A DNA stretch of 64,000 nucleotides from assembly GCA_027118455.1 (NCBI GenBank), contig JAJAYZ010000067.1, positions 6,987-70,986 of the forward strand, in the 5' to 3' direction. Of the stretch, positions 19,347-52,628 are shown in pieces; the first letter of the stretch is position 1; every line of letters begins with the position of its first letter. The stretch comes from Actinomycetes bacterium (GTDB lineage: Bacteria; Actinomycetota; Actinomycetes; JAHEKZ01). The notes beneath the pieces are model-generated. The model was not told the origin of the DNA. It saw only the letters and a list, made by a program, of their open reading frames with translations, and searched no databases. Position numbers and translations under genes: made by a program.

Positions 19347-20330
19347 ATGGCAGTCTCGCGCACTGAGCGCTTGCTCAACCTGGTGATCTGTCTTCTTGCA
19401 GCAACTCGGTATGTGAACAAGGAGCAGATCCGCCAGGCGGTGCCCCAGTACGCCGGGTGCGCCAGCGATGAAGCCTTTGAGCGCATGTTCGAGCGAGACA
19501 AGGACGACCTGCGAGAAATGGGAATCCCGCTCGAGACCGGGTCGAACGAGGTTTTCTTCGACGACGAGATCGGCTACCGCATCCCCAAAGACGCCTACGC
19601 CCTGCCGCCTGTGGCGTTCGACTCAGAAGAGCTTGCCGTCCTCGGAGTCGCCGCCCGGATGTGGCAACACGCCACCTTGGCTGGCGCTACAGCGCGAGCC
19701 ATCCGCAAGCTCGAGTCAGTGGGGGTCGACGTCGATCCGGAAGCTCTGGCGGTCATCGAGCCCCGGGTCGACGCCGCCGAGCCCGCCTTCGCGGCGCTCT
19801 GGGACTCCGTGCAGCAGCGGCATCGGGTGCGGTTCCACTACTCCCGTGGCGGTGCGGCAGCCGCGCCGCGGCGGTTGCAGCCATGGGGACTGGTCTCCTG
19901 GCACGGCCGGTGGTACGTCGTCGGTCACGACGATGACCGAGGGGAGACCCGGGTCTTCCGGCTGTCGCGCATACAGGGAGATGTCACGGCCGACGGTCCT
20001 GCTGGCTCAGTCGTGGTGCCCGACAACGTAGACATCACTGCCTCGGTGCGCATGCTCGCTCAGCCTGCACCAGCACGAACCGCTCGGCTGCAGGTGCAAA
20101 GCGGGCGTGCCGTCCCCCTGCGCCGCCAGGGAACGGTCGTGAGCGAAGAGCCAGGTGCTTCTGTTCTGGACGTACCGTTCGAAGACGCCGAGCAGATGGC
20201 ATCGATCGTCTGCGGATTTGGCTCTGCGGTGACAGTCCTGACACCTGCGGACCTTAAAGACGCAGTTGTCCGTCGCCTGCGCACCACTCTTGAGTCCATC
20301 TCGGCAGCCAGCGCTGGCGGGGCAGCGTGA
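19347..20330 (+). CDS. pafB: Proteasome accessory factor PafB (HTH + WYL domain transcriptional regulator)
   Basis: N-terminal wHTH (MAVSRTERLLNLVICLL..) and C-terminal WYL domain. Start at ATG 19347 after GGAGAGGA. The upstream part of the 18957 ORF overlaps the convergent gene. Confidence 0.85.
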   Translation: MAVSRTERLLNLVICLLAATRYVNKEQIRQAVPQYAGCASDEAFERMFERDKDDLREMGIPLETGSNEVFFDDEIGYRIPKDAYALPPVAFDSEELAVLGVAARMWQHATLAGATARAIRKLESVGVDVDPEALAVIEPRVDAAEPAFAALWDSVQQRHRVRFHYSRGGAAAAPRRLQPWGLVSWHGRWYVVGHDDDRGETRVFRLSRIQGDVTADGPAGSVVVPDNVDITASVRMLAQPAPARTARLQVQSGRAVPLRRQGTVVSEEPGASVLDVPFEDAEQMASIVCGFGSAVTVLTPADLKDAVVRRLRTTLESISAASAGGAA

Positions 20331-21271
20331 CCACCGGGGGAGCGGTCGGCCAGCTCACGCGGCTCCTGGCGCTGATTCCGTGGCTCCTTCAGCGGCCAGG
20401 GGTCTCCGTGGCTGACGCAGCTTCGGAGTTCGACATCTCTGAGCAACAGCTGCGAGCCGATCTTGGGCTCGCGTTCTTCTGTGGCTTGCCGGGGCACCTG
20501 CCCGATGACCTGATCGACGTCTCCTTGGAGAACGACCAGATCGTCGTCACCAACGCCGACACGATTGCCCGACCACTGCGCCTAGCGCCCGACGAGGCTG
20601 TTGCACTTTTGGTAGGGCTGCGTGCACTCGCCGACCTTCCAGCACCAACAGGCCCCGACGTGATCGATCGGGTCATCGCCAAGCTGGAACGTGCGGCAGG
20701 AGACGCGGCAGACGCGCACCGAAATGTGAAGGTCTCGATCGAGGGGGCCGGCGAGGCTCAGGAGGCCGTGGGAACAGCGCTACGGACGGGACGCCGGCTC
20801 GCGCTGGAGTACTACGTCCCCGCCCGAGACGAGGTCACCATTCGACAGGTCGACCCCCTGCGCCTGCTTCTGGTCGACGGTCAGAGCTACCTGGAGGCAT
20901 GGTGCCTTCTCGCCGGCGACCTGCGCATCTTTCGTCTCGACCGGATCCAGTCTGCGCAGGTTCTCGACACACCGGCATCGCCGCGTCCGGTGCCGCCGGT
21001 CCGTGAGGGGATCTTCGACAGCGACACCGCAGCCTGGCGGGTGCGGCTGGCGCTGAGCCATCGAGCCGAGTGGGTACGCGACGCGTATCCGAGCACGGTG
21101 ATTGCGAGCGAGCCAGAGCTCGTGGTCGAGCTTTCGGTTGCCGACCTTGGGTGGGCCAAGCAGCTGGTGATGCGCCTGGGTGGCACTGTTCGGCCGCTCG
21201 CACCACCTGAGCTGGTCGATGCCGTCCGCACTGAAGCCGAAGACGCGTTGGCGGCCTACCAGAGCCACTAG
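20327..21271 (+). CDS. pafC: Proteasome accessory factor PafC (HTH + WYL domain)
   Basis: Paralogous HTH-WYL architecture. GTG start overlaps the pafB stop (GTGA). Confidence 0.85.
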   Translation: MTTGGAVGQLTRLLALIPWLLQRPGVSVADAASEFDISEQQLRADLGLAFFCGLPGHLPDDLIDVSLENDQIVVTNADTIARPLRLAPDEAVALLVGLRALADLPAPTGPDVIDRVIAKLERAAGDAADAHRNVKVSIEGAGEAQEAVGTALRTGRRLALEYYVPARDEVTIRQVDPLRLLLVDGQSYLEAWCLLAGDLRIFRLDRIQSAQVLDTPASPRPVPPVREGIFDSDTAAWRVRLALSHRAEWVRDAYPSTVIASEPELVVELSVADLGWAKQLVMRLGGTVRPLAPPELVDAVRTEAEDALAAYQSH

Positions 21272-28767: not shown

Positions 28768-29922
28768 GTGGCCCTGACCGTCACTCGAGAGTTCACCGAT
28801 CCCAGTTCGGCCGACCTGCTGCCCACCGTGCGGCAGATCTGCGACGACCTCCTAGCACCGCGAGCAGCCGCTGCAGAAGACACAGCCGAGTTCCCACGTG
28901 AGGTGTTTCGAACTCTCGGAGCCGCTGGGCTGCTCAGCCTCCCCTTCCCGCAGGAGTACGGCGGCGCAGGGCTGCCGCTGCACGACTACCTTCAAGTGAT
29001 CGAAGAGTTGACCTCCGCCTGGGCGACCGTCGGCCTCGGCGTCAGCGTTCACACGCTTTCGTGTTTCCCGCTTGCCTCGTTCGGCACCGACGAGCAGAAG
29101 CAACGCTGGCTTCCGGCGATGCTTGGTGGTCAGCTGCTTGGTGCGTACTGCCTCTCGGAGGCAGAAGCAGGTTCGGACGCGGCAGCGCTCGCCACCAGCG
29201 CCTCGCACACCGACCTCGGATATCGAGTCAACGGCGTGAAGTCGTGGATCAGCCACGGCGGAGTTGCTGATTTCTACGTCGCCATGGTGCGCACGTCCGA
29301 CGATGGAGCGAAGGGCATCACCTGCCTGCTGCTCGACTCCGACACCGCTGGCCTCTCGGCCAGGAGCCCAGAACGCAAGCTCGGTTTCTCGGCGTCCCCG
29401 ACGGCTCAGATGGTCTTCGACGATGTCCCGGTTGACGCAGACCGACGAATGGGGGAGGAGGGGCAAGGCTTTGCCATCGCGCTGGCAGCCCTCGATGGAG
29501 GCCGCCTCGGGATGGCAGCGTGTGCAGTCGGTATCGCACAGGCGGCCCTCGACCTCGCGGTCCAGTACGCGCATGAGCGTGAGCAGTTTGGCCGCCTCAT
29601 CGCAGAGTTCCAGGGGTTGTCATTCATGCTTGCCGACATGGCCACCCAGGTGGCAGCAGCGCGCGCGCTCTATCTGGCCGCCGCCCGCAAGCGTGATCGC
29701 GGCGAGACGTTCGGAGTCGATGCCGCGATGGCCAAGCTCTTTGCCACTGACATGGCCATGCAGGTGACCACGGATGCGGTTCAGGTGCTCGGTGGTGCCG
29801 GCTACGTGAAGGACTACCCCGCCGAGCGCTACTTCCGCGAGGCCAAAGCGTTGCAGATCGTCGAGGGGACCAATCAGATCCAGCGCGTGGTGATCGGCCG
29901 TTCCTTGCGCCCGCGTCGGTAG
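28768..29922 (+). CDS. Acyl-CoA dehydrogenase
   Basis: Three-domain ACAD architecture with C-terminal ..YVKDYPAERYFREAKALQIVEGTNQIQRVVIGR. The catalytic Glu region is conserved. Confidence 0.9.
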   Translation: MALTVTREFTDPSSADLLPTVRQICDDLLAPRAAAAEDTAEFPREVFRTLGAAGLLSLPFPQEYGGAGLPLHDYLQVIEELTSAWATVGLGVSVHTLSCFPLASFGTDEQKQRWLPAMLGGQLLGAYCLSEAEAGSDAAALATSASHTDLGYRVNGVKSWISHGGVADFYVAMVRTSDDGAKGITCLLLDSDTAGLSARSPERKLGFSASPTAQMVFDDVPVDADRRMGEEGQGFAIALAALDGGRLGMAACAVGIAQAALDLAVQYAHEREQFGRLIAEFQGLSFMLADMATQVAAARALYLAAARKRDRGETFGVDAAMAKLFATDMAMQVTTDAVQVLGGAGYVKDYPAERYFREAKALQIVEGTNQIQRVVIGRSLRPRR

Positions 29923-29970: not shown

Positions 29971-30465
29971 GTGGATGAGCTCGACGGACACGACCGGCAG
30001 ATCGCCCAGCTGCTCAGTGCAGACGGCAGGATGAGTTACACCGAGCTGGCCAAGCACACGGGACTCTCGACGTCTGCGGCTCACCAACGGGTTCGACGAC
30101 TCGAACAACGCGGCGTCATCACCGCGTATCGAGCAAGCATCGATCTTTCAGCCATCGGACTGCCCATGACGGCATTCGTGTCGATCTCACCCATTGACCC
30201 CGCAGACCCCGACGACATCCCCGATCGGGTCGCTCATCTGCGGGCCGTTGAGTCGTGCTACAGCGTGGCCGGTGACCACAACTACGTCCTCAACGTCCGG
30301 GTTGCCAGCCCAGTAGCCCTTGAGCAGCTCCTAGCCGACCTGCGTGCCAGCGCCCACGTCACCACCCGGACCACGGTGGTTCTGAGCATTCCGTACGAGA
30401 ACCGCCCACCCGATCTCGGCGACAATCCAGGAGACGAGGCCGACGGGGACACCGCTCCCTGGTAG
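29971..30465 (+). CDS. Lrp/AsnC family transcriptional regulator
   Basis: N-terminal HTH (DRQIAQLLSADGRMSYTELAK) and C-terminal RAM domain. Confidence 0.85.
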   Translation: MDELDGHDRQIAQLLSADGRMSYTELAKHTGLSTSAAHQRVRRLEQRGVITAYRASIDLSAIGLPMTAFVSISPIDPADPDDIPDRVAHLRAVESCYSVAGDHNYVLNVRVASPVALEQLLADLRASAHVTTRTTVVLSIPYENRPPDLGDNPGDEADGDTAPW

Positions 30466-30657: not shown

Positions 30658-31476
30658 GTGGCAGGGCGACGACGAGCAGCGCGAACGAGCACGGCCTCAG
30701 CCGGTCTGGCTGGCGCCATCGCCGACCGCACTCGGCTCGTGGGCGTCACCGCACTGATCGCCACGGCAGCTCTGCTTGCCGCACTGGTCGTCCCGGCCGT
30801 GTGGCGCTCAGCCGGCACCGACGTCGAGGCCTCAGCGGAGGCCAGCAGCCTCTTCACCCTCGTCAACCAGGCGCGGGCCAACAACGGACTGGCTCCGCTG
30901 GACTTCGCCTCCGACCTCACGGCGGTTGCCGCTCAACGAGCCTCGATCATGGCCGAGTCCGGCTCACTCACCCACACGCCTGACCTGGGCGGGCAGGTCT
31001 GCTGCTGGACGTGGATCGGCGAAAACGTTGCATTCGCCGGATCGGTGCAGTCGGTCAACGACGTCCTCATGAACTCGGCGCCACACCGCGCGAACATCCT
31101 TAATGCCGATGCCGACGACATCGGAGTCGCCGTCGTCAAAAGTGGGGGCGAGTACTGGGCGGCCGAGGTGTTCCGCGCCCGCTCTGACGCCGATCGGGCT
31201 GACGATGCCAACTCCGACTCACGCGGTGACAGCCGCGGCTCACCGGCGACGACCAGTGCCCCATCCTCGACGACTGGCTCAACCGGCACTGGTACCACCA
31301 CGACGACGAGCACGGCTCCGGTCCTGACCCGAGCCGAGCTCCTGCGCCAGCAGCTGAAGCAAGATTTATACAACGCGCGGCAGGACCTGCAGGCCGATCG
31401 TCGAAAGCATGGACCGTTCGATCCGGTGAAAGCAGCCGTCCGCTATTCGGCAACGCTCGACAGAGTGACCCGCTAG
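30658..31476 (+). CDS. Membrane-anchored CAP/SCP/PR1-like domain protein
   Basis: N-terminal transmembrane anchor, then CAP-domain motifs (HTPDLGG..GENVAF, SAPHRANIL) and a T/S/G-rich C-terminal tail. Confidence 0.7.
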   Translation: MAGRRRAARTSTASAGLAGAIADRTRLVGVTALIATAALLAALVVPAVWRSAGTDVEASAEASSLFTLVNQARANNGLAPLDFASDLTAVAAQRASIMAESGSLTHTPDLGGQVCCWTWIGENVAFAGSVQSVNDVLMNSAPHRANILNADADDIGVAVVKSGGEYWAAEVFRARSDADRADDANSDSRGDSRGSPATTSAPSSTTGSTGTGTTTTTSTAPVLTRAELLRQQLKQDLYNARQDLQADRRKHGPFDPVKAAVRYSATLDRVTR

Positions 31477-31494: not shown

Positions 31495-32952
31495 CTAGTG
31501 AGTCGGCGCCATATCAGAAGCTGCAGCCGCCCTCGACGCCGCAGCTGCAGCGTGCGTCTCCGCGGCAATCTGGCCCTTGGGGTAGCCCTCATTGATCCAC
31601 CACTCTTGGCCCTCTTGGGGCAGTGAGTGCACTGGGTCGTAGTAGACATGCTTTTTCCGCACAGCATCTGGGTCTTCGAGCTCGATCCCGGTGCGGTAGT
31701 TCTTTGACCAGTACGAGATCCCGAGAACGTGGTCGTACTCGTCGACTTGGTGCACCCAGCGCTTGCCGACGAACGGCACGTCGCAAGTGACTCGTGGGGT
31801 CGCAAATCCCGGCAGGTAGCCCATGACGCCATGCTGCAGCCGCTGTGCGTCAGCCAACGAGACGCGCCAGTGCTCAGCAAAGGGAATCATGTCAGGCATG
31901 TAGAAGTAGTAGGGCAGGATGCTGGCCTCATCGAGCAGGGCGAAGCAGAGGTCGAGCAGCTGGTCGACGCTGTTGTTGATGCCGGCCATCAGGACACCCT
32001 GATTGCGAACATCACGAATACCGACGTCCAGCAGGCCTCGCGATGCTCTGGCGACCAACGGCGTTACTGAGTTGGCGTGGTTGACGTGGGTGTGGACGGC
32101 CAGGCCAACACCGCGACTGGAGGCCTTGGTCGCCAGTCGTTCGGCTCCGGCCAGGACATCGTCGGAGTACCAGTGCTGGGGGAGCCCCATCAAAGCCTTG
32201 GTGGCCAGCCGGATGTCACGGATGTTCTCGACGTCGAGGATCTTGTCGACGTAGGCCTCGAGGTTCTTCCATGGCATGTTGCCGACGTCGCCACCTGAGA
32301 CCACCACGTCACGGACCGACGGGGTCGCCCGCAGATAGTCGAGGTGTTGCTGCATGCGGTCGACCGGCTTCAGCTCCAGCTTCAGCTTCTTCACGGTCGG
32401 GGTGGAGTTACCGACGAGGTCCATCCGCGTGCAGTGTCCGCAGTACTGCGGACAGGTAGAGAGCACCTCGGCGAGCACCTTGGTCGGATACCGGTGGGTG
32501 AGCCCCTCAGCTCGCCACATGTCGTGCTCGTGCAAGGAGTCGCGGCTGGAGTAGGGGTGCGACGGCCAGTCGGTACGCCGGTCACTGAACACCGGGAGCA
32601 TGTAGCGACGCACCGGGTCGACGTAGTAGGCCTCGGTGAACGTCTGCGGGGTCGGTGTACCGGTGTCGTGCGAGTCCGGGACCATGGTGTTGACCATTTG
32701 CGGAGTGATCAGCATCGACATCGTTGCGCGCTCGGCCTGATCTAGCTCAAGATCGTCGTAGAAGTCGTCAGTCAGCAGATCACCCATCAGGGCGCGCAAC
32801 TGCTTGATGTTCTTGACGCAGTGTGCCCGTTGCCACTGTGCGTCTTCCCACTCAGAAGTGGTGACCTCACTCCAGCCTGGAAGGCGCGTCCAATCTGGTT
32901 CGCGGACCTCGTGCTGGCGGTAGTCGTACGGCTGGGGTAGCGGATGGCTCAC
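31495..32952 (-). CDS. kamA: KamA-family radical SAM aminomutase (lysine 2,3-aminomutase-like)
   Basis: CPQYCGHCTR radical-SAM CxxxCxxC motif in the KamA context, with PLP-binding region. 485 aa. Confidence 0.8.
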   Translation of the reverse strand: MSHPLPQPYDYRQHEVREPDWTRLPGWSEVTTSEWEDAQWQRAHCVKNIKQLRALMGDLLTDDFYDDLELDQAERATMSMLITPQMVNTMVPDSHDTGTPTPQTFTEAYYVDPVRRYMLPVFSDRRTDWPSHPYSSRDSLHEHDMWRAEGLTHRYPTKVLAEVLSTCPQYCGHCTRMDLVGNSTPTVKKLKLELKPVDRMQQHLDYLRATPSVRDVVVSGGDVGNMPWKNLEAYVDKILDVENIRDIRLATKALMGLPQHWYSDDVLAGAERLATKASSRGVGLAVHTHVNHANSVTPLVARASRGLLDVGIRDVRNQGVLMAGINNSVDQLLDLCFALLDEASILPYYFYMPDMIPFAEHWRVSLADAQRLQHGVMGYLPGFATPRVTCDVPFVGKRWVHQVDEYDHVLGISYWSKNYRTGIELEDPDAVRKKHVYYDPVHSLPQEGQEWWINEGYPKGQIAAETHAAAAASRAAAASDMAPTH

Positions 32953-33020
32953 TGGCTCTCCTTCAAACCGTTATCGCAGTACCGCGAGGTTACGGAGATC
33001 TTCCTGCCAAATCAATGACA

Positions 33021-33080
33021 AACCGCAACTTCTCCACCAAAAGGTGGTTCGTTTCCATTTTGTTGCGGAGTTCCCCCTCC
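33021..33080. promoter_or_regulatory. AT-rich nested palindromes in the divergent kamA / kdd promoter region
   Basis: ACCGCAAC-TTCTCCACCAAAAGGTGG-TTCGTTTCCATTTT-GTTGCGG: outer CCGCAAC/GTTGCGG and inner CCACC-AAAA-GGTGG inverted repeats. A locally AT-rich stretch in a high-GC genome. Confidence 0.4.
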
Positions 33081-33123
33081 CGGGTGCTGGCGATCGCACC
33101 CTCGCTCCTGACAAGATCGCCCG

Positions 33124-34197
33124 GTGACTCGAACGACTCCATCGTCGCCCGTAGGACTTCACCGTGTCATCGAGCCGCGCGGAGTTCTGCCGCAGGCCGC
33201 CACCAGAGTTAACGCCAGCCCCGAGATCTGGCCAGACGAGGTCCGGGTGGCCGTCTCGGTGCTCAACCTCGACGCAGCCTCATTCCGGCAGTTGATCACC
33301 AAGCACGACGGCGACGGCGACGCCGTCCGCAGCGAGGTACTCGAAATCATCGCCGACCGGGGGAAGATGCAGAACCCAGTGACCGGTTCAGGCGGCATGC
33401 TCGTCGGCACCGTCGACGAGGTGGGTCCGGAGGCCACCTTCGACGTCACGGTCGGGCAGCAGATCACGACGCTCGTCTCGCTCAGCCTGACTCCGCTGGT
33501 GGTGACCGACGGGCTCGTCCGTTGGAGTGGCCTGAGCGAGCAGGTGCCGTGCGACGGCTACGCGATCCTCTTCGGGCGAACGATTGCCGCCTCGGTACCG
33601 CATGACCTCCCGCCAACGCTGGCTATGGCGGTCATGGACGTCGCAGGAGCCCCGGCTCTCACCGCGAGGGTGGTGCTGCAGTACGTGGATCGGGGTCACC
33701 CGCCGACCGTTGCAGTGATCGGCGGGGCAGGAAAGAGCGGATCGCTCTCCCTGGCCGCCGCGCGTGACAGCGGCGCTAAGAGGACTGTCGGCATTGTCCC
33801 CGTTCACGCTGAGGCCGAGTTGCTCAGCGAGGTCGATTTGGCCGACGTCGTTGCGATTGCAGATGCCCGAGATCCGGTGGCTCTGTCTACGGCTGTCGAG
33901 CAGTCGCTGGGTGCTCCGGCTGATATCACCGTGGTCTGCGTCGACGTCCCGGGATGTGAGCACGGGGCCATCCTGGCCACGTCACCAGACGGCGGCACCG
34001 TCATTTTCTTCTCCATGGCAACCTCTTTCACCGCAGCCGCCCTCGGGGCCGAAGGACTCGTCTCGGATACGACCATGCTGATTGGAAATGGCTACACGCC
34101 AGGCCATGCTGAGTACGCCTTCGACCTTTTGCGCCGCTCGGCTGGCGTTCGTGACCTCTTTACCCGTCGGCTAGCTCACGAGGAGAGAGCGGGGTGA
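33124..34197 (+). CDS. kdd: L-erythro-3,5-diaminohexanoate dehydrogenase
   Basis: N-terminus HRVIEPRGVLPQ... and the motif GKMQNPVTGSGGMLVGTV match Kdd of the lysine fermentation pathway. Confidence 0.75.
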   Translation: MTRTTPSSPVGLHRVIEPRGVLPQAATRVNASPEIWPDEVRVAVSVLNLDAASFRQLITKHDGDGDAVRSEVLEIIADRGKMQNPVTGSGGMLVGTVDEVGPEATFDVTVGQQITTLVSLSLTPLVVTDGLVRWSGLSEQVPCDGYAILFGRTIAASVPHDLPPTLAMAVMDVAGAPALTARVVLQYVDRGHPPTVAVIGGAGKSGSLSLAAARDSGAKRTVGIVPVHAEAELLSEVDLADVVAIADARDPVALSTAVEQSLGAPADITVVCVDVPGCEHGAILATSPDGGTVIFFSMATSFTAAALGAEGLVSDTTMLIGNGYTPGHAEYAFDLLRRSAGVRDLFTRRLAHEERAG

Positions 34198-35813
34198 CCA
34201 CCACGCTGTATCGCGGAGGGCTGGTCTACAACACCGCCGAGCCCTTTGCCACCGCGCTGGTAACCCAGGACGACCTCGTTGCTTGGGTCGGATCAGATGA
34301 GGCTGCCCGCGTCAACGCCGACGGAGTTGACGTCGTCGTCGAGCTCGATGGAGCGCTGCTCACGCCCGCCTTTGTTGACGCGCATGTCCACACGACCTCG
34401 ACGGGGTTGAACCTGTCCGGCCTCGACCTCTCGGACACCAAGTCCCTGGAGGAGGCGCTTGCGCGCCTGGAGGCACACTCCAGAAGCGTGCGCGGCGCCG
34501 TGGTGCTCGGGCATGGGTGGGATGAGACCAGGTGGCCCGAGGCTCGTCCGCCACGTCGCGACGAGGTAGACCGTGCTTCATACGGTGGGGTTGTCTATCT
34601 TTCCCGCGTTGACGTCCACTCGTGCATCGCATCCTCGGCCCTGCTTGCGCTTGCTCCCGAAGTGAGCAATGCAGCCGGCTACTCAGCCGATGGATGGCTC
34701 TCCCAGCAAGCGCATCACGTCGTACGTCGGATCGCACTCGACTCAGTCACCCCTGCTCAGCGCCGAGCAGCTCAACGGCTCTGCCTGCAGCATGCAGCGT
34801 CGCTCGGCATCGGTATGGTGCACGAGCTCGGTGGTCCCGAGATCTCCAGTGCCGACGACTTCGCCGACCTCCTCGCCACGGTTGGCCCAGAGTCGGGCGT
34901 CGAAGTTGTCGGCTATTGGGGCGAGGGCGGGGGTCCTGATGTCGCACTCTCGCTCGGGGCACGCGGTGCGGCGGGAGACCACTTCGTCGACGGCGCGATT
35001 GGCTCGCGAACCGCTTTCTTGCGAGACACCTATGCCGATGCCGAGACGCACGGCGCCGCGTACACGACAGCAGCCACGATCCGCGACCACGTCATTGCAT
35101 GTTCGATGGCCGGCGTGCCGGCCGGTTACCACGTGATCGGCGATGGCGCGATGGACCTGGTCGTCGCTGGCTTCACCGAAGCAGCAGAGGCAATCGGCGA
35201 CGATGTGGTTCGAACGGCCCAACACCGGCTTGAGCATGTCGAGATGGTCGACGGCTTGGCCAGGGCAGTGCTCGCGCGCCTAGGAGTTCTCGCCAGCGTG
35301 CAACCAGTGTTCGATGCCTGGTGGGGTGGGGACACCGGCATGTACACCGAGCGACTCGGTGCCGCCCGGGCAGCGACCCTCAACCCATTCGCCAGCATGC
35401 AGGCGGCCGGGATCCCGTTGGCTTTCGGCTCTGATGCCCCCGTGACACCCCTGGCTCCGTGGCAGGCGATCCGGGCGGCTGTCCATCACCATCAGCCAGA
35501 AGAGCGGCTCACCGCACGTTCTGCATTCACCGCACACACCCGCGGTGGATGGCGAGCGGCTGGACGACGCGGCGGCGTCCTGGCGCCGGGTGAGCCGGCC
35601 ACCCTGGCGTTGTGGCAGTGCGATGAGCTTGTGGTCGAGACTCCAGACGATCGGGTTGCCGCCTGGTCGACCGACCCGCGGGCGGGTGTCCCTGGCCTTC
35701 CGTCGTTGGAGCCCGGCACTGCAGACCCGGTGTGTCTGCGCACGATCGTCGCAGGTCGTACGGTCTACACCAGTGACGCCGTCCAACCAATCAACCCTGG
35801 GAGGGGTAAGTGA
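34194..35813 (+). CDS. Metal-dependent amidohydrolase (Amidohydro_3/YtcJ-like)
   Basis: N-terminal HxH (DAHVHT), conserved His/Asp residues and a C-terminal GSDAP motif. Overlaps kdd by 4 nt. Confidence 0.75.
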   Translation: MTTTLYRGGLVYNTAEPFATALVTQDDLVAWVGSDEAARVNADGVDVVVELDGALLTPAFVDAHVHTTSTGLNLSGLDLSDTKSLEEALARLEAHSRSVRGAVVLGHGWDETRWPEARPPRRDEVDRASYGGVVYLSRVDVHSCIASSALLALAPEVSNAAGYSADGWLSQQAHHVVRRIALDSVTPAQRRAAQRLCLQHAASLGIGMVHELGGPEISSADDFADLLATVGPESGVEVVGYWGEGGGPDVALSLGARGAAGDHFVDGAIGSRTAFLRDTYADAETHGAAYTTAATIRDHVIACSMAGVPAGYHVIGDGAMDLVVAGFTEAAEAIGDDVVRTAQHRLEHVEMVDGLARAVLARLGVLASVQPVFDAWWGGDTGMYTERLGAARAATLNPFASMQAAGIPLAFGSDAPVTPLAPWQAIRAAVHHHQPEERLTARSAFTAHTRGGWRAAGRRGGVLAPGEPATLALWQCDELVVETPDDRVAAWSTDPRAGVPGLPSLEPGTADPVCLRTIVAGRTVYTSDAVQPINPGRGK

Positions 35814-37402
35814 CGCGACGAGGTAAGGGCAAGCTCGAGCTTGACCCCGCCGTGGTCCGAAAGGCTCGTAGCCTCGCGCGCAAGGCCGGTAAGCCCATCG
35901 TGACTCTGGCAAAGACGCACACCACGGTGTCCGTCGAGCGAGCAGTACTGCGTCTCGCCGGATTGTCAGGTGCCGATGCCGAGGGGCAACCCTGGGTGAA
36001 CCATGTCGCCGACGCCGTGCGTCAGGACGTCGGCCTCGAGCACGGCGTTGCCCTTCCGGTCTGGCATGCGATGGCGTCAGGTCAGTTCGCCGACCTGACC
36101 GCTCTCGCGCAGAAAGCCGCCGCAGGAGGGGTGATCTTCCACGCCCCCGAGGGGCGAGACGCCACCCGTGCCCGCAGCGCGTCCCGAAAGGCTGCGGCTG
36201 CCGGCCTGCGAAAGATCGACAGCAACCGCAAGGCTCGCGACCGGTTCACCAAGAAGTATGGCGACCCACCCAAGCCATGGATCTACCTGATCGTCGCCAC
36301 CGGGGATATCTACGAGGACATGCCGCAGGCACAGGCTGCGGCACGCGAAGGTGCCGACATCGTGGCCGTGATCCGATCAACAGGCCAGTCGCTGCTCGAC
36401 TTCGTCCCAGAAGGGCCGACTCGTGAGGGTTACGCGGGCACGTATGCGACGCAAGAGAACTTTCGCTTGATGCGCTCAGCTCTCGACGAAGTCTCTGCCG
36501 AACTTGGACGCTACGTACGATTGACCAACTACGCGTCGGGTCTCTGCATGCCCGAGATTGCGACGTTGGCCGGCCTGGAGCGCCTCGACATGATGCTCAA
36601 TGACTCGATGTACGGAATCCTCTTTCGCGACATCAACCCGATCCGCACCTTCGTCGACCAGCGCTTCAGCAGGCAGATCCATGCACGGGCGGGGATCATC
36701 ATCAACACCGGCGAGGACAACTACCTCACGACGGCGGACGGCGTCGAGGCTGCACACACCGTCACCGTCAGCCAGCTTCTCAACGAGTTCTTCGGCAAGG
36801 AAGCCGGGCTCGTCGACGACCAGCTTGGTCTGGGCCATGCCTTCGAGATCAATCCGACCGTGCCCGAGTCGTTCCGGCTCGAGCTGGCCCACGCCTTGCT
36901 GGCCCGCGAGCTCTTCCCCAACGCGCCGCTGAAGTGGATGCCGCCCACCAAGCACATGACCGGCGATGTGTTCGGTGGCTATCTGCTGAACGGCTTCTTC
37001 AACCTGGTCGGCTCAATGACGGCGCAGGATATCCTCCTGGTCGGCATGTTGACCGAGGCCGTTCATACACCGTGGTTGTCGGACCGCGATCTCGCCCTGC
37101 AGAACGTTCGCTACGTGATGGAGTCGACCCGTGGGCTGGCCGAGGACTTCGTCCCGGCGCATGACGGATTCATCGTCCAACGCTCGCGCCAGGTGCTGGG
37201 GGAGGCCATCGAGCTGCTCGAGCGGATCGTGGACGACCAGCTGCTCAACGCCATCGCCGACGGCACGTTCGGGCTGATGAAGCGCCCGGCCGACGCCGGC
37301 CGCGGACTCGACGGGGTCGCCAAGCACTCCAACTCTTACTACAACCCGGCCAGCGAACTACTCGACGAGTACTTCGCCGACGCGAAGGGGCATGCTCGAT
37401 GA
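35810..37402 (+). CDS. kamD: D-lysine 5,6-aminomutase alpha subunit-like (KamD)
   Basis: N-terminus ..LDPAVVRKARSLARKAGKPIVTLAKTHTTVSVERAVLRLAG.. closely parallels KamD/OraE-family large subunits. 530 aa. Confidence 0.8.
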   Translation: MTRRGKGKLELDPAVVRKARSLARKAGKPIVTLAKTHTTVSVERAVLRLAGLSGADAEGQPWVNHVADAVRQDVGLEHGVALPVWHAMASGQFADLTALAQKAAAGGVIFHAPEGRDATRARSASRKAAAAGLRKIDSNRKARDRFTKKYGDPPKPWIYLIVATGDIYEDMPQAQAAAREGADIVAVIRSTGQSLLDFVPEGPTREGYAGTYATQENFRLMRSALDEVSAELGRYVRLTNYASGLCMPEIATLAGLERLDMMLNDSMYGILFRDINPIRTFVDQRFSRQIHARAGIIINTGEDNYLTTADGVEAAHTVTVSQLLNEFFGKEAGLVDDQLGLGHAFEINPTVPESFRLELAHALLARELFPNAPLKWMPPTKHMTGDVFGGYLLNGFFNLVGSMTAQDILLVGMLTEAVHTPWLSDRDLALQNVRYVMESTRGLAEDFVPAHDGFIVQRSRQVLGEAIELLERIVDDQLLNAIADGTFGLMKRPADAGRGLDGVAKHSNSYYNPASELLDEYFADAKGHAR

Positions 37403-38202
37403 GCAAACGCGCGGAGCCGCACATCATTCGCCCCTATGGTGACGCCACCGGCGACGGCCAGGTCCAAGTGTCCTTCACGCTTCCCATTGCGCACGACAAG
37501 CGAGCCGAGGGAGCAGCACTCCAGTTGGCGGCCAAGATGGGTCTTGAGCCGGCCATGGTGGTGCATGCCAAGCAGATGGGACCGCACTTCACCTTCTTCG
37601 TCGTCTACGGGCGCTGCAGCCACCTGGTCGACCTCAACAAGGTCGTCGTCATGGAGCGTGAGTTCCCTCTTCTCTCACCGAAGGAGGTCAGCGCGGCGAT
37701 CAAGCGCTCGTTGCGGCGTCCACTGGTGGTGATTGGTGCCTGCATCGGTACCGACGCCCACACGGTCGGCATCGACGCGATCTTGAACATCAAGGGTTGG
37801 GCTGGGGAGAAAGGGCTGGAGGCCTACAGCGACCTCGAGGTGCACAACCTCGGCGCCCAAGTATCCGTCCCTGATCTGGTGGAGCATGCGCAGAGCCTCA
37901 AAGCTGACGCCGTGCTTGTCAGCCAGGTGGTGACGCAACGAGAGGCTCACCTCCACAACGTCACGCAAATGTCAGCTGCGTTCCGCGAGGCATACCCGGC
38001 TGGAACAACGCCGGTGCTGATCGTTGGAGGCCCGCGCTTCGACGAGAGTGCTGCGTCTGAGCTAGGCGTCGACCGCATTTTTGTGAAGGGAACGACACCC
38101 AGCGAAGTTGCCAGCTACCTGGCGCACCGGCTCTGCGCGACGCCGGCCGGCACTCGTCGGCCCAACGCCAAGAAGAAGAGCAAGAAGGCAGGAGTGCGCT
38201 GA
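37399..38202 (+). CDS. kamE: D-lysine 5,6-aminomutase beta subunit-like, cobalamin-binding (KamE)
   Basis: ..IRPYGDATGDGQVQVSFTLP.. KamE-family N-terminus followed by a B12-binding Rossmann domain. Overlaps kamD by 4 nt. Confidence 0.8.
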   Translation: MSKRAEPHIIRPYGDATGDGQVQVSFTLPIAHDKRAEGAALQLAAKMGLEPAMVVHAKQMGPHFTFFVVYGRCSHLVDLNKVVVMEREFPLLSPKEVSAAIKRSLRRPLVVIGACIGTDAHTVGIDAILNIKGWAGEKGLEAYSDLEVHNLGAQVSVPDLVEHAQSLKADAVLVSQVVTQREAHLHNVTQMSAAFREAYPAGTTPVLIVGGPRFDESAASELGVDRIFVKGTTPSEVASYLAHRLCATPAGTRRPNAKKKSKKAGVR

Positions 38203-38618
38203 TGCCAGATCCCACCGACCACAAGCTTGGGAAGAGCATCACGCATCGGCGGTACGTGCCCTACTCGCACGCTCACTATGCAGGGAACTTGGTCGACGGG
38301 GCGTACACCCTCAGTCTCTTCGGCGATGTGGCTACCGACTTGATGATCGTCACCGACGGCGACGAAGGGCTCTTCGCCTCATACTCCGACATCCAGTTCA
38401 CTGCCCCGGTTCGCGCGGGTGATGTCCTCGAAGTCACCGCGACGGTCAGCAGGGTTGGGCGGCGCAGCCGAGAGCTCACGTTCACCGCCCGTGTCGTCAG
38501 TCGCGGCCGGCCCGACCTCGGAGAGGCCGCTGCCGAGGTGCTCGCCGAGCCAAAATTGGCCGTTTCGGCCATCGGCACCATCGTCGTTCCCCCACCCGTG
38601 GCCACCGCGGAAGCGTGA
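38202..38618 (+). CDS. kal: Hotdog-fold protein resembling 3-aminobutyryl-CoA ammonia-lyase (Kal)
   Basis: HYAGNLVDGAYTLSLFGDVATDLMIVTDGDEGLFASYSDIQFTAPVRAGD matches the Kal family of the lysine fermentation pathway. 138 aa. Confidence 0.6.
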   Translation: MPDPTDHKLGKSITHRRYVPYSHAHYAGNLVDGAYTLSLFGDVATDLMIVTDGDEGLFASYSDIQFTAPVRAGDVLEVTATVSRVGRRSRELTFTARVVSRGRPDLGEAAAEVLAEPKLAVSAIGTIVVPPPVATAEA

Positions 38619-38636
38619 TCGGGTTACCGTCATCTG

Positions 38637-40208
38637 GTGAGCACTATCGCCAAGGGCCAGCCCACGGCTCGAAAGGTTGAGCCCTTACCGGCCAGGCCCG
38701 TTCCGTTGTTGGCGACGGTTCTCGCCTCGGCGGCGATCGGTGGTTTCCTGGTGCTTGCCTTCCCTCCGTATGACCTGTGGTGGTTGGCCCCCGTGGCCGT
38801 CACTGGGATGCTCGCCGCACTAGACCTTGGGACGCGGACCGGCCGCCCGATGCTTCGTGGTGCTCTGCTCGGGGCGGTCTTCGGGTTGGTCTTCTTCGGC
38901 CTGCTGACGCCATGGCTGCGAGTCATCGGCCCCGATGCCTGGCTGCTGGTGGTGGTGCTGTCGGCAGCTTTCACCGCGCTGTTCGGCGCCGGCGCCACGC
39001 TACTCGTACGTCTGCGTGGATGGCCGTTCTGGGTCGCTTGCTGGTGGGTTGGTGTCGAGGCACTACGGGGACGGGTGCCTTTCGGCGGTTTTCCCTGGGG
39101 TCGGTTGGGCCATTCGCAGGCCGACGCGCCAACGGCCGCTTGGGCCTCGGTGGGTGGCGTGCCCCTGCTGGGTTTCATCCTCGTGCTGGCAGGTGCCCTG
39201 CTGCTGGTCGCAGTCAAAGCGGCCGTTCGCCGTCATCTGCTTCGATCTGCCATCGCGGCGGGCGCCGCTCTTGCCATCGTGCTCAGTGGCCTGGCGATCC
39301 CGCTGGCCACAGCTGGACGTCAGATCACCGTCGCGATTGTCCAGGGCAACGTTCCTCGAACTGGAATGGACGCATTCGGACAACGCGAGGCGGTGCTGGC
39401 CGCTCACCTGGACGCTACGCACCAGCTCGCCGACGACGTCCGGGCTGGCGCCGTCGCCGCGCCTGACGTGGTCATCTGGCCTGAGAACGCCTCCGACATC
39501 GATCCGGCGCTGGACGCTGATGCGTTCGCTGCCATCGATGACGTGGTCAAGGACGTCGGTGTCCCGGTACTGGTGGGGATGGTTGTGGAGGTCGACGGCG
39601 GGGATCGGGTGGCCAACCAAGGCACGGTGTGGGACCCGGTCACAGGTCCTGGCGCTTCGTACATCAAACAGAACTTGGTTCCGTTCGGCGAGTACGTCCC
39701 GTTCCGCTCAACCGTCGAGAAGTTCATCACGCGATTGGACCGGATCCCCCGCGACTTCGTTGCTGGTGACAAGCCAGGGGTGATCGACCTTGGTCCCGTT
39801 ACTGTTGCCGACGTCATCTGCTTCGACGTCTCGTTCGACTCGGCAGTCCGCGATGCCGTCGCGGGCGGGGGCGAGTTGATCACGGTGCAGACCAACAACG
39901 CCACGTACGGACGCACTGGTCAGGTCGAGCAACAGTGGGCGATGAGCCGGCTCCGGGCGGTTGAGCATGGCCGTACGGTTCTCGTCGCCTCCACGAGCGG
40001 TATCAGCGGGATCATCGCCCCGGACGGTGAGGTCCAAGCCGAGACCCCAGAGTTCGTGCAGCAGGTGGTTGTCGAGTCGGTGGTTGCCAGAACCGACCAA
40101 ACCCTCGCCACGCGGGTAGGCGCTTGGCCCGAGCTGGTCTTGTCCCTTCTTGGTCTCGGCGCGGTCGTGCTGGCGGCCGTGCGTCGACGAGGCAGAATCG
40201 CAGCATGA
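38637..40208 (+). CDS. lnt: Apolipoprotein N-acyltransferase Lnt
   Basis: N-terminal polytopic membrane domain plus CN-hydrolase domain (..VICFDVSFD.. catalytic Cys region). GTG start. Confidence 0.85.
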
Positions 40209-40942
40209 ACGGCGACGTACTGGTCATCATCCCGACCTACAACGAGCGACCATCACTGCCACCGATCGTGCAACGCGTCCGGGCGGCAACTCCGGACGCC
40301 CACATCCTCATCGTCGACGACAACAGCCCGGACGGCACCGGCGATCTCGCCGACTCGCTCGCGGCCGAAGACGACCACATCGAGGTTCTCCACCGCACCG
40401 CCAAGAACGGACTGGGAGCTGCCTACCTGGCCGGTTTCCGGTGGGGGATGAGCCGTGGATTTGATGTGCTCGTCGAGATGGACGCCGACGGCTCTCATCG
40501 GCCCGAGCACCTGCCGGCAATGTTGGACGCTCTGCGATGCGCAGACGCCGTCATCGGGTCGCGCTGGGTGCCTGGAGGCGGCGTCGTAAACTGGCCACGT
40601 CACCGGCAATGGCTGTCCCAAGGCGGAAACCGCTACACGCAGTTGATGCTGGGACTGGGAGTCCATGATGCGACCGCCGGTTACCGCGCCTATCGCCGTA
40701 GCGCGCTGGAGCGCATGGACCTGTCGACGGTCTCCTCGCAGGGCTACTGCTTTCAGGTCGATCTCACCCGACGTGCGGCGGCCGCTGGGCTGAGGATCGT
40801 CGAGGTACCGATCACGTTTGTCGAACGCGAGCAAGGCGACAGCAAGATGAGCGGGGCTATCGTCGCCGAAGCGCTGTGGCGCGTCACTCAGTGGGGGGTA
40901 ACGAGCCGTGCGCGGCACCTTGCACAACGGGGCTGCCGCTGA
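40205..40942 (+). CDS. ppm1: Polyprenol-phosphate mannose synthase (GT2; Ppm1/dolichol-phosphate mannosyltransferase-like)
   Basis: [17 protein letters not shown]...[13 protein letters not shown]...[10 protein letters not shown]2 motifs. ATG 40205 overlaps the lnt stop (ATGA). This lnt-ppm1 pairing corresponds to the fused M. tuberculosis Ppm1. Confidence 0.85.
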
Positions 40943-41421
40943 TGCTCGTCGTCTTCTTGCTGTTCTTCGTCGTCATTCCCGTCCTAGAGCTCTATGTCGG
41001 CTCGCTGGTCGTCGATGCCCTGGGGTTCGGCCCGGCGACCCTCCTGCTCCTGGTGGCGGTGGTGCTCGGCGTCATCGTCATGCGCTCAGCGTGGCGGCGG
41101 CGGCCGCGCAGCACCGAGAGTGCGATCCTGATGGCAGCCGGCATCTTGTTGCTGCTTCCCGGGTACGTCTCAGACGTCGTGGGACTTCTGCTGCTGCTTC
41201 CACCGGTCCGTGCTCTGCTTCGCGTCTGGATAGGGCAGCGTGTCGCGCGCCGGCTGACGTCGTGGAACTTGACCATCTTGCGCTGGGATGACGACACCGG
41301 ACGGATCACCCGCACCGATGTGGTTCCGGGCGAGGTCGTCGAGGACGGCCCAACGGATGGACGCGTCGTACGCGGTGAGATCGTGCCGGGGCCAAGTGAC
41401 CAGCCCGAGAGCCGTTCTTAG
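40942..41421 (+). CDS. fxsA: FxsA family membrane protein
   Basis: [19 protein letters not shown].. and LLLLPGYVSDVVGLLLLLPPVR are typical of FxsA. Start overlaps the ppm1 stop (TGATG). Confidence 0.7.
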   Translation: MLVVFLLFFVVIPVLELYVGSLVVDALGFGPATLLLLVAVVLGVIVMRSAWRRRPRSTESAILMAAGILLLLPGYVSDVVGLLLLLPPVRALLRVWIGQRVARRLTSWNLTILRWDDDTGRITRTDVVPGEVVEDGPTDGRVVRGEIVPGPSDQPESRS

Positions 41422-41768
41422 GCCGAGCGGCGGGCGGCGCCGGAGGCCCGCAGGAGCCCAAGGCGCTCTTCGAGCAGCTCTTCGAGTTCAGGAATCGAGC
41501 GTCGCTCCAGCAGCATGTCCCAGTGGGTGCGGGAGGGTTTGATCGCCTTCTCTTCCGGGAGAGGCACGTCGCGACCAATCGCAACGGCTCCGCACGCGCG
41601 GCACTCCCAGCGAGCCGGCACGTCAGCTTCGACGGAGAACGGCATGGTGAAGGAGTGGCCTTCAGGGCAGTCGTACGTGACGTCGAGGCGAGCTGCTGGC
41701 TCTACACCCTCGTCATTCTCGTAACTCGTCGCACCCAGACGGGTCCCCCGAAGCGAGCGCTCAGCCAT
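41418..41768 (-). CDS. rbpA: RNA polymerase-binding protein RbpA
   Basis: 116 aa; ..YDCPEGHSFTMPFSVEADVPARWECRACG.. and a C-terminal sigma-interaction helix. Adjacent to ppm1 as in M. tuberculosis. Confidence 0.9.
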   Translation of the reverse strand: MAERSLRGTRLGATSYENDEGVEPAARLDVTYDCPEGHSFTMPFSVEADVPARWECRACGAVAIGRDVPLPEEKAIKPSRTHWDMLLERRSIPELEELLEERLGLLRASGAARRSA

Positions 41769-51057: not shown

Positions 51058-52092
51058 TCAGGTCATCGTGGTGACCGCTCGGCTGAATACCGTTGGCATC
51101 CTCTGGGCCAGCGGCAGTAGCGCCGCTCGCGACCCTCGCCATTGGGTGGCCCGAAGCAGCGCCTCGGTCGACCAACGAAAGCGTCGGGTGATGCGGCTCC
51201 AATCGGCCGCGTACTGATCCAGGTTCCCCGACGCAGCCGCTGAGACGGCGGCGCGGGCGCCAATGAATCCGATCGCAAGTCCTTCGCCGGTGAGTGCGTC
51301 GACGTATCCGGCAGCATCACCCACAAGGAGCACTCGCCCACGAAGAGGGTGAGCGGCGCGACGACGGAGTGGCCCAGCCCCCAGCGTCGCCCCTACGGGC
51401 AGGGCTCCCCCGAGCCGCGCGACGAGCGCGGGAAAGTCCGCCAAGCGATCGTTGAAGGTCCCTCCACGCTCACCGAGAAGGGCAACGCCAACGATCTCTG
51501 GCGCCACCGGCGTCAGATACGCCTCTCCCCGGCTGGCCCAGTACACCTCAATGTCGTCGCTCCACGGCCGCACCGAGAAGTGTTGCCGAAGCCCGTAACG
51601 CACCGGCCCGGTAGTCACACGGCCCAACCCGATGGCGCTGCGAACACCCGATGACAGCCCATCGCAACCCAGCACCACGTCCGCTTCGACTCCACCGCCT
51701 CTTGCCAAAGTCAGGCAGACCCTCGTCGCGTCCTGGTCGATGCCGATCACCCGGTCGTGAATCGACGTGACACCGACGCTTTCTGTCCGGGCCAACAGGG
51801 CGGCCATCAGAGTTGTCCGTTGAACTCCGCGCCCAGGGGCTGTGGCCAGCGTGGCACGCACCTGCCGGCGTCCCTCCGCATCGAGGTATCGGATGCCGCC
51901 GAACTCGACGCCGACGGGGTCGACACCGATTTCGCGGAGGGCGCCCAGAGCCGCCGGCATCAGCCCCTCGCCGCACGCCTTGTCGATGACGCCTTCTCGT
52001 TGCTCGATAACCGTCGCGTCCATTCCGGCAAGCTGGGCCGCAGCGGCGGCATACAGGCCCACCGGTCCCCCACCGACGACAACAACCTTCAC
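51058..52092 (-). CDS. FAD-dependent oxidoreductase (geranylgeranyl-reductase/flavin monooxygenase-like)
   Basis: N-terminal GxGxxG (VVVGGGPVGLYAAA) and ..DKACGEGL.. motif of the geranylgeranyl reductase family. Confidence 0.8.
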   Translation of the reverse strand: MKVVVVGGGPVGLYAAAAAQLAGMDATVIEQREGVIDKACGEGLMPAALGALREIGVDPVGVEFGGIRYLDAEGRRQVRATLATAPGRGVQRTTLMAALLARTESVGVTSIHDRVIGIDQDATRVCLTLARGGGVEADVVLGCDGLSSGVRSAIGLGRVTTGPVRYGLRQHFSVRPWSDDIEVYWASRGEAYLTPVAPEIVGVALLGERGGTFNDRLADFPALVARLGGALPVGATLGAGPLRRRAAHPLRGRVLLVGDAAGYVDALTGEGLAIGFIGARAAVSAAASGNLDQYAADWSRITRRFRWSTEALLRATQWRGSRAALLPLAQRMPTVFSRAVTTMT

Positions 52093-52628
52093 CGGTCTGC
52101 CACCGATGCGCTATCAAGCACCCGAAGTGCCTTGTTCTCTGCTGGGATACGTTGGCGCAGCACCCATGCATTGGCGAGTGTGAAGAGCGTCGCAGTGATC
52201 CACGCCGTGTGTACCAAAGGGAGGCAGATCCCTTCGACCACAACGGCTAGGTAGTTCGGGTGATGCAGCCACCGGTAGGGCCCACCACCGACTCGCCCTG
52301 CGCCAGGAACGACAACGATGCGGGTGTTCCACTGCTGCCCCAGGGTGGCGATGCACCACCAACGCAACCCCTGAGCAATGCCAACGCCCACCAGCGCTGG
52401 CCAGCCGAGCCAGGGCAGGAAGACCCGCCCCAGCAAGACGACTTCGAGCACCGACCCGACCAAGAGTCCGATATGGATGAGCACCATCGCCACATAGTGC
52501 TCGCGGCCGAGCTCGACGCCGCCACGAGCCTTGGCCCAGGCGATGTGACGCTGGGAGGTGACAAGCTCAACCATCCGTTCCACACCGACCGCTGCAACCA
52601 GCAGGGCGAACCACGTCGTTGATGTCAC
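52089..52628 (-). CDS. ICMT/PEMT-family membrane methyltransferase
   Basis: Polytopic membrane protein with the C-terminal ..HPNYLAVVVEGICLPL..E motif of isoprenylcysteine carboxyl methyltransferases. The likely GTG start at 52628 lies 5 nt after the PKS stop. Confidence 0.7.
   Translation of the reverse strand: MTSTTWFALLVAAVGVERMVELVTSQRHIAWAKARGGVELGREHYVAMVLIHIGLLVGSVLEVVLLGRVFLPWLGWPALVGVGIAQGLRWWCIATLGQQWNTRIVVVPGAGRVGGGPYRWLHHPNYLAVVVEGICLPLVHTAWITATLFTLANAWVLRQRIPAENKALRVLDSASVADR

Follow-up and report, generated by a model that had tools for sequence, protein, structure and literature searches.

The 64,000-nt stretch of actinomycete DNA analyzed here (contig JAJAYZ010000067.1; the whole stretch is called the window below) carries a compact block in which genes of a lysine pathway (a divergent kamA-like gene, kdd, kamD, kamE and kal), with an Amidohydro_3 hydrolase gene between kdd and kamD, are followed on one strand by the envelope genes lnt, ppm1 and fxsA. 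Our results suggest, with good confidence, that the block consists of two known and functionally separate operons with separate promoters, situated on a slowly rearranging and vertically inherited chromosomal backbone. The first unit would comprise the kamA-like gene and the coupled kdd-Amidohydro_3-kamD-kamE-kal genes, expressed from a regulated divergent region between kamA and kdd (Table 1), with the cleavage enzyme Kce encoded elsewhere or replaced. The second would be the classical ppm operon, lnt (ppm2)-ppm1 together with fxsA, which makes triacylated lipoproteins and polyprenol-phosphate-mannose and would be transcribed from a leaderless promoter of its own, TACCGT-N6-GTG, located in the 18-nt spacer between kal and lnt. 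The adjacency of the two units would persist because the region rarely rearranges, the kam genes being kept in place or lost and not moved.

The stop and start codons in the block overlap by 1-4 nt at six junctions, as an earlier note on this DNA had described and as could be read straight from the sequence. The kal-lnt junction is the sole same-strand junction of the block without an overlap. Here the kal stop codon (38616-38618) is separated from the lnt GTG at 38637 by an 18-nt gap, TCGGGTTACCGTCATCTG, and the lysine gene set is thus not translationally fused to lnt, contrary to the claim of the same note. No Shine-Dalgarno-like sequence was present in this spacer. A -10-like hexamer, TACCGT, is located exactly 6 nt ahead of the lnt GTG, and the complete signature spans 38625-38639. 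Leaderless promoters in actinobacteria have a TANNNT -10 element centred 7-12 bp before the start site and no -35 consensus (PMC3898074), and following this definition we scored as a signature any in-frame start codon preceded by TANNNT-N6. A scan of 31-42.2 kb for the sigma-70 consensus found nothing, which is uninformative for promoters without a -35 consensus, such as those of actinobacteria (PMC3898074).

The signature was scored in the 80 loci that best matched KamE in a genome scan, to which the window proteins were mapped by tblastn. These loci belong to Micrococcales, Propionibacteriales, Micromonosporales, Sporichthyales, Kineosporiales, Jiangellales and Nanopelagicales, and include many metagenome-assembled genomes (MAGs). 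The results showed a clear enrichment at lnt, where the signature preceded the start codon in 41/72 loci, as compared to 0/80 for kamE, 0/80 for kal, 1/62 for kdd and 3/71 for ppm1 (lnt vs. 4/293 pooled starts, Fisher p = 7e-30). It was found at lnt in 12/17 loci even when kal and lnt were no more than 60 nt apart. The Amidohydro_3 and kamD starts served as an internal control, with the signature at 0/36, 0/29 and 0/13 starts packed on the upstream gene and at 3/9 and 9/22 starts that were separated from it. The sequence GTTACCGTC-N-GTG is kept at lnt in four relatives (L001, L002, L004 and L006), and the lnt starts of other clades read CCTACCGT-N6-GTG or CGTAGCCT-N6-ATG. These motifs suggest that leaderless transcription of lnt is conserved across actinomycete orders, and lnt-ppm1-fxsA would have a promoter of its own. 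A leaderless lnt would be poorly translated from read-through RNA, because the spacer holds no Shine-Dalgarno-like sequence.

Distances between the genes in the relatives point in the same direction. The kamD-kamE and kamE-kal pairs are tightly coupled, with a median distance of -4 nt for both and overlaps in 64/77 and 61/80 loci, respectively. The gap from kal to lnt has a median of +413 nt (range -46 to 5855, 72 loci), being longer than 300 nt in 45/72 and longer than 1 kb in 15/72 loci; it is 60 nt or shorter in 17/72, and 14-59 nt in the clade of the window itself. The smallest gap with a leaderless lnt start is 14 nt (L044, L055, L071, L072 and L079); three of these five were scored as overlaps under naive start choice, and the sole overlap is that of L018 (-22 nt). 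The longer gaps are filled with genes that vary by lineage, such as a PD40 protein with Sua5/YrdC, SulP, an M20 peptidase, a luciferase-like oxidoreductase, a class III CoA-transferase and a MutL-type mutase partner, and in Ornithinimicrobium the gap holds a DUF2254 gene on the opposite strand. Many minus-strand open reading frames (ORFs) in these gaps were either antisense to the N-terminal part of lnt or spurious R/G/P-rich frames, and were discarded. The MutL-family (PF13941) protein follows kal in a Planosporangium locus (L046, 11090-12571) and in a MAG (L050, 11087-12511), and is not found in the window; the family includes mutase partner or reactivase proteins.

We conclude that the kal-lnt junction is most probably an operon boundary. 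An obligatory common transcript or a functional link is not supported, because this junction alone lacks an overlap and carries a conserved leaderless signature that is absent from the internal junctions, and because the gap in relatives is long and filled with unrelated genes, including genes on the opposite strand. These data bear on a different reading, a functional super-operon, in which a lysine-responsive kam promoter reads through kal into lnt-ppm1-fxsA, so that the envelope is co-regulated with lysine or fed by a metabolite derived from beta-lysine or 3-aminobutyryl. We regard this as unlikely. The location on one strand, the 18-nt spacer and the relatives with equally short spacers would fit such an arrangement, as would the terminator scan, which detected no convincing hairpin between kal and lnt (the nearest candidates were a hairpin on the minus strand within kal and a weak one within lnt). 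However, the leaderless-type -10 element is retained at lnt even in short spacers and most relatives have an extended gap. We also know of no chemistry that links the formation of crotonyl-CoA or acetoacetate to the substrates of Lnt or Ppm1, which further counts against a super-operon.

The recurrence of kam genes beside lnt and ppm1 in other actinobacterial genomes had been proposed as a check, and it was clearly seen. Fifty-six of the loci have the full 10-kb downstream flank, and these come from at least five named orders; ppm1 was found within 10 kb downstream of kamE in 56/56, lnt (after kal) in 54/56 and rbpA in 56/56. The same gene order was observed in L088, a kam-bearing metagenomic locus found independently via RbpA. 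On the upstream side a kamA-like gene was present in 47/55 loci, and an Lrp gene upstream of kamA in 37/55. A recurrence this complete, across several orders, would be expected from a super-operon, but it does not discriminate, because the convergent rbpA gene is equally conserved, and since rbpA is convergent its retention is not due to a shared transcript. Thus, the adjacency on which the earlier note had built its proposal is real, whereas the functional link between the kam and envelope genes is not supported, given the kal-lnt boundary, the rbpA control and the backbone that genomes lacking kam genes retain. In two Nocardioides spp. (L069 and L070) kal is followed by ppm1 with no lnt between them. 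One locus, L015 (JAJAYQ010000133.1), was binned as 'Spirochaetaceae bacterium' and has an actinomycete-type kam locus with KamE 74% and KamD 75% identical to those of the window; the label is probably a binning error.

Gene fusions give a similar picture. Among the 150 best representatives from an exhaustive HMMER search with Kal, the true fusions were KamE-Kal, Kdd-Kal and Kal-Kce, and none joined Kal to Lnt or Ppm1, which is a further reason why neither a functional link nor a super-operon is supported. Two candidates of 527/528 aa, P0280 and P0282, were considered as Kal-Lnt fusions and appeared by eye to be frameshifted miscalls, with a Kal start followed by an R/A/P-rich out-of-frame translation across the lnt region.

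The backbone itself was examined in eight genomes sampled via RbpA, seven of which have no kam genes. All seven retain lnt and/or ppm1 together with fxsA and rbpA, which speaks against a super-operon, and as the same backbone is kept when the kam genes are lacking a functional link is not supported. The order is fxsA (Rv2053c)-Amidohydro_3 (Rv2052c)-ppm1 (Rv2051c) and then rbpA (Rv2050) in Mycobacterium tuberculosis; an acyl-CoA dehydrogenase gene further upstream of Lrp-Amidohydro_3-ppm1-fxsA, followed by rbpA-ATG22-GDPD, in Streptomyces; Lrp-Amidohydro_3-lnt-fxsA and then rbpA in Streptacidiphilus; and lnt-ppm1-fxsA near rbpA in Planobispora, Carbonactinospora, Bailinhaonella and one MAG. 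The gene fxsA is located between ppm1 or lnt and rbpA in six of the seven and in the kam-bearing L088, whereas in M. tuberculosis it is upstream of Rv2052c. In Streptacidiphilus fuscans (L085) lnt is followed by fxsA with no ppm1 between them. The hexamer TACCGT is also present ahead of lnt in the kam-less Carbonactinospora (L084). The Lrp of the window is 67% identical to the Streptomyces copy, and its gene lies directly upstream of Amidohydro_3 in kam-less Streptomyces and Streptacidiphilus. For an accessory operon that is inherited vertically in a region with few rearrangements, an unchanged position in all genomes that carry it is to be expected under the null hypothesis.

Mantel tests on pairwise protein distances, used in place of identity-to-window rank correlations that were too coarse, showed that KamD distances correlate with those of Ppm1 (r = 0.55), Lnt (0.49) and RbpA (0.58) to about the same degree as with those of KamE (0.63) and Kal (0.55; all p = 0.001). 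KamD thus co-varies with the backbone proteins, which indicates a shared vertical descent of the kam genes and their neighbours. This was weighed against the possibility that the kam genes form a recently acquired mobile island which landed upstream of lnt. A slightly lower G+C content at 31-33 kb and 36-38 kb (0.62-0.64, vs. 0.65-0.68 in the flanks) and the patchy distribution of kam genes among actinobacteria could be explained in this way. Not only the co-variation but also the identical position in the 56 informative loci contradicts it, and no tRNA gene was detected in the window, nor did the ORFs scanned around the block show a domain of an integrase or transposase. A mobile island is thus very improbable, and we reject it.

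The gene that fits least easily into two separate units is the Amidohydro_3 gene embedded between kdd and kamD. Its product is over the full length 59% identical to the protein next to ppm1 in kam-less Streptomyces and 45.5% identical to Rv2052c. Since these values fall in the same range as those of Ppm1 (61-65%), Lrp (67%) and the acyl-CoA dehydrogenase (62%), it appears from sequence identity to be the Rv2052c orthologue and a backbone gene. It had earlier been counted as a member of the lysine gene set, which does not agree with its orthologues in kam-less Streptomyces and M. tuberculosis. Rv2052c is still a hypothetical protein (PMC8562490), and the only relatives in PDB are the uncharacterised 3ICJ and 3IGH. 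One could imagine that this hydrolase is the real link, acting on a derivative of lysine or beta-lysine (e.g. an N-acyl derivative or a lactam) as part of an Lrp-controlled amino-acid module, with its closeness to ppm1 in Mycobacterium and Streptomyces left behind by loss of kam genes. An ancestral array of the order Lrp, kamA, kdd-amidohydrolase-kamDE-kal and lnt-ppm1-fxsA would then, with deletions, yield all present layouts.

We find such a link quite unlikely, although several observations fit it. The gene has 4-nt overlaps with kdd and kamD in the window and is no more than 60 nt away from kdd in 36/45 loci and from kamD in 29/51, it directly follows an Lrp gene in two kam-less Streptomycetales, and its distances track those of kdd (r = 0.74), kamD (0.67), lnt (0.81) and ppm1 (0.78). 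The interleaving of kam and backbone genes would also be most simply obtained from an ancestral array with losses. On the other hand, the gene is missing between kdd and kamD in 18/62 loci that have both, and it persists in genomes that lack kam genes altogether. Genes on the opposite strand, for a PlsC-type acyltransferase and an 820-aa protein with no Pfam match, lie between it and kamD in one clade, and in another clade a phosphoketolase gene and Pta are inserted between kdd and the amidohydrolase gene. No characterised homologue hints at a substrate, and the canonical pathway needs no hydrolase (PMC3149608).

Several points weigh against the reading of two separate operons. The activity of the lnt promoter is inferred from the motif. 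Some read-through from kal into lnt is likely to occur to some extent in the short-spacer clade of the window, since no terminator was found between the two genes. The adjacency is 100% in the sample, yet the loci sampled are the 80 with the closest KamE, so that distant kam clusters with other neighbours may be missed. Further, the Rv2052c orthologue shows translational coupling to the kam genes on either side of it, and Rv2052c itself has an 8-nt overlap with ppm1 in M. tuberculosis, a double association that would also suit a super-operon. It is a gene-level bridge between the kam and ppm units that inertia alone does not explain. The resulting interleaved layout, Lrp [kamA kdd] amidohydrolase [kamD kamE kal] lnt ppm1 fxsA, is the best remaining argument for some connection and is not fully explained; it would most simply be read as an ancestral array with repeated loss of kam segments. 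A combined scenario, in which that array was kept by selection, Rv2052c acts on an amide derived from lysine or beta-lysine, and lysine-induced read-through raises lnt-ppm1 in short-spacer lineages, seems to us a long shot.

A last point on this side is that the lysine pathway, as written in the earlier note, is incomplete. The proposed route to 3-aminobutyryl-CoA stands in so far as KamD, KamE, Kdd and Kal all scored above the family cut-offs, whereas kce was not detected in the window or among 84 related loci (L001-L084). No kce/BKACE match was found among the window ORFs of at least 200 aa that were scanned, and a tblastn search of the window and these loci, with the Kce part of the Kal-Kce fusion P0346 as query, returned no match at E ≤ 1. 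A gene for the cleavage step would therefore lie elsewhere, unless the step is replaced.

The open reading frames of the window were listed and scanned against Pfam and NCBIfam profiles, and the identities that the earlier note had given to all nine genes from the kamA-like gene to fxsA, including the position of kamA as a divergent upstream gene, were upheld. KamD and KamE, which together correspond to lysine 5,6-aminomutase, as well as Kdd, Kal and Lnt passed NCBIfam equivalog cut-offs (Table 1). Kdd aligns over its full length with the 3,5-diaminohexanoate dehydrogenase 7DL3 (E 3e-61), Kal is related to the beta-alanyl-CoA ammonia-lyase 4MTU, and the identity of Ppm1 is 61% with the C-terminal domain of its M. 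tuberculosis counterpart, 65% with the protein from Streptomyces and 67% with that from Planobispora. Loss of the radical-SAM, B12 or pyridoxal phosphate (PLP) residues would have spoken against the proposal, and alignments of the KamA-like protein and KamE show that they are present. KamE has the B12 motif DAHTVG (DxHxxG) and NIKG when aligned with 8T0V/1XRS, and we place its PLP lysine, by our own identification from the alignment, in NIKG. The KamA-like protein retains, as compared to 2A5H, CPQYCGHC (CxxxCxxC) and the equivalents of Asp293 and Asp330, which serve the epsilon-amino group of lysine, with a lysine one position off the PLP-lysine site. It had no match in the Pfam scan and reached 146 bits against a cut-off of 525 with the lysine 2,3-aminomutase model of NCBIfam, being below the KamA family cut-off as well; it is probably a lysine 2,3-aminomutase that belongs to a divergent clade in actinobacteria. 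Actinobacterial KamA-like proteins of 470-485 aa, such as those of the window and of L088 (18135-19547), have in common that they keep the catalytic residues, have no Pfam match and stay under all NCBIfam KamA-family cut-offs.

Table 1. Features of the block and its surroundings, with positions in the window or, where a relative is named, in that locus.
Feature	Position	Strand	Observation
Pup-proteasome region	9976-21271		Mpa/ARC ATPase, Dop, PrcB, PrcA, PafA, FKBP, DUF3866, PafB, PafC; then TatC and HelY-type helicase
Acyl-CoA dehydrogenase	28768-29922		only acyl-CoA dehydrogenase found; orthologue in kam-less Streptomyces, 62% identity
Lrp/AsnC-family regulator	29971-30465	+	Pfam HTH_AsnC-type and AsnC_trans_reg
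CAP-domain gene (cysteine-rich secretory protein family)	30658-31476		between Lrp and kamA
kamA-like radical-SAM aminomutase	31495-32952	-	divergent from kdd; 485 aa; TIGR00238 158 bits vs. cut-off 199
kamA-kdd divergent intergenic region	32953-33123		171 nt; nested inverted repeats
kdd, L-erythro-3,5-diaminohexanoate dehydrogenase	33124-34197	+	NF052381 equivalog 247 bits vs. cut-off 200
kdd/Amidohydro_3 overlap	34194-34197		GTGA
Amidohydro_3 metal-dependent hydrolase	34194-35813	+	PF07969 245 bits
Amidohydro_3/kamD overlap	35810-35813		GTGA
kamD	35810-37402	+	NF052384 equivalog 697 bits vs. cut-off 600; PF09043 801 bits
kamD/kamE overlap	37399-37402		ATGA
kamE	37399-38202	+	NF052385 equivalog 340 bits vs. 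cut-off 280
kamE/kal overlap	38200-38204		TGATG
kal, 3-aminobutyryl-CoA ammonia-lyase	38202-38618	+	hotdog fold; NF052388 equivalog 181 bits vs. cut-off 160
kal-lnt spacer	38619-38636	+	18 nt; TACCGT at 38625-38630
lnt (ppm2), apolipoprotein N-acyltransferase	38637-40208	+	TIGR00546 equivalog 272 bits vs. cut-off 133; LNT_N (PF20154) and CN_hydrolase (PF00795)
lnt/ppm1 overlap	40205-40208		ATGA
ppm1, polyprenol-phosphate-mannose synthase (GT2)	40205-40942	+	PF00535 121 bits
ppm1/fxsA overlap	40940-40944		TGATG
fxsA-family membrane protein	40942-41421	+	PF04186 and NF008528
rbpA, RNA-polymerase-binding protein	41418-41768	-	PF13397 139 bits; convergent, end of block
Amidohydro_3 copy in L081	13246-14850	-	
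Amidohydro_3 copy in L082	12582-14186	-	
Amidohydro_3 copy in L085	13336-14976	-	

The kamA-kdd spacer has the inverted repeats CCGCAAC/GTTGCGG (33023-33029 / 33062-33068) around CCACC-AAAA-GGTGG, and also carries GATCTTCCGG-like and GGAGATCTTCC-type repeats. Related motifs, GGAGATCTTCCGG ... CCGGAGAATCTCC, recur in the corresponding spacer of relatives, and similar repeats, CGGAGATCTTCCGGC...GCCGGAGAATCTCCG, were seen in the relative L003. Since the repeats recur in relatives they suggest a dedicated and regulated kam promoter, and the spacer is likely to be the promoter/operator region of the kam genes. The nearby Lrp/AsnC protein, although encoded by a backbone gene, is a candidate regulator of the neighbouring amino-acid genes. 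The CAP-domain gene between Lrp and kamA was found in 3/55 loci, those of the closest relatives of the window only. When the window and four loci were scanned with Rfam, the one riboswitch detected was a glycine riboswitch ahead of gcvP, with none in the vicinity of kam or lnt.

Both units resemble systems that have been described elsewhere. The lysine fermentation cluster of Fusobacterium nucleatum and Clostridium sticklandii contains kamA, kamD, kamE, kdd, kce and kal, and then butyryl-CoA dehydrogenase and AtoAD (PMC3149608, its ref. 13 Kreimeyer et al.), and the pathway has been noted before in Actinobacteria, without experiments (PMC3994512). The window is alike in having KamD, KamE, Kdd and Kal at equivalog level, a KamA-type aminomutase with the lysine-binding aspartates and tightly coupled kamD-kamE-kal genes, and the database fusions of Kal with KamE, Kdd and Kce agree with this. 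It differs in that the block has no kce, CoA-transferase or Etf (no Etf or AtoAD domains were found among the window ORFs scanned), in that an amidohydrolase gene is embedded between kdd and kamD, and in that the KamA-like protein of 485 aa stays under every family cut-off. As the hosts are mostly aerobic actinomycetes, the route would probably feed crotonyl-CoA into beta-oxidation and not lead to butyrate.

The ppm operon, lnt/ppm2-ppm1, has been described in Mycobacterium smegmatis (MSMEG_3860-MSMEG_3859) and Corynebacterium glutamicum, and the two genes are fused in M. tuberculosis Rv2051c (PMC3460810). That M. tuberculosis Ppm1 joins both activities in one protein, as the earlier note had stated, agrees with the LNT_N, CN_hydrolase and GT2 domains seen in this fusion (PMC3460810), and the domain content encoded by the window is identical. 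In the window lnt directly precedes ppm1 with overlapping codons, with fxsA and the convergent rbpA alongside, and the two are separate genes as in M. smegmatis. The M. tuberculosis and Streptomyces blocks resemble that of the window in that orthologous genes are 45-67% identical and have the same relative orientation. They differ from the window, which has kamA and kdd between Lrp and the amidohydrolase gene and kamD-kamE-kal between the amidohydrolase gene and lnt, so that the kam operon lies directly upstream of lnt; fxsA is downstream of ppm1 in the window and upstream of Rv2052c in M. tuberculosis. In the literature we found no paper that discusses the juxtaposition of kam and ppm genes.

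The window as a whole is part of the chromosomal core, with genes for an mshC-like ligase, TrmI, Mpa, Dop, PrcBA, PafA, PafBC, TatC, HelY, a 5'-3' exonuclease and an M24 peptidase. We take its gene order to be collinear with M. tuberculosis Rv2130c to Rv2089c and then Rv2053c-Rv2050 on the H37Rv map, the Pup-proteasome region presumably corresponding to Rv2115c-Rv2092c. Outside the block, a glycine riboswitch aptamer (RF00504, 60 bits) is located at 57467-57560 (-), upstream of the gene for the glycine cleavage P-protein at 54382-57348 (-). Genes for a type III polyketide synthase, an ICMT-family methyltransferase and an FAD-binding oxidoreductase are found at 51058-54273 (-), a set which presumably resembles the phenolic-lipid (alkylresorcinol) operon srsABC of Streptomyces. 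The polyketide synthase ORF has an N-terminal stretch of ~220 aa without a domain match, and its start codon may be miscalled.

Taken together, this analysis illustrates that tight same-strand packing, and even perfect adjacency, can come from chromosomal inertia in the actinobacterial core, and that a conserved leaderless -10 hexamer at the boundary, combined with the spread in gap size across relatives, can serve as an in silico discriminator. The Pfam and NCBIfam models cover the actinobacterial KamA-like clade poorly. If the selected-array scenario discussed above were true, amino-acid supply would be tied to the biogenesis of envelope lipoproteins and mannolipids. For Rv2052c, the coupling of its orthologues to beta-lysine pathway genes, and their location after an Lrp regulator, may provide a lead to substrate and function. 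A kam operon lacking kce is found at a single fixed position on the chromosome in many actinomycete orders.

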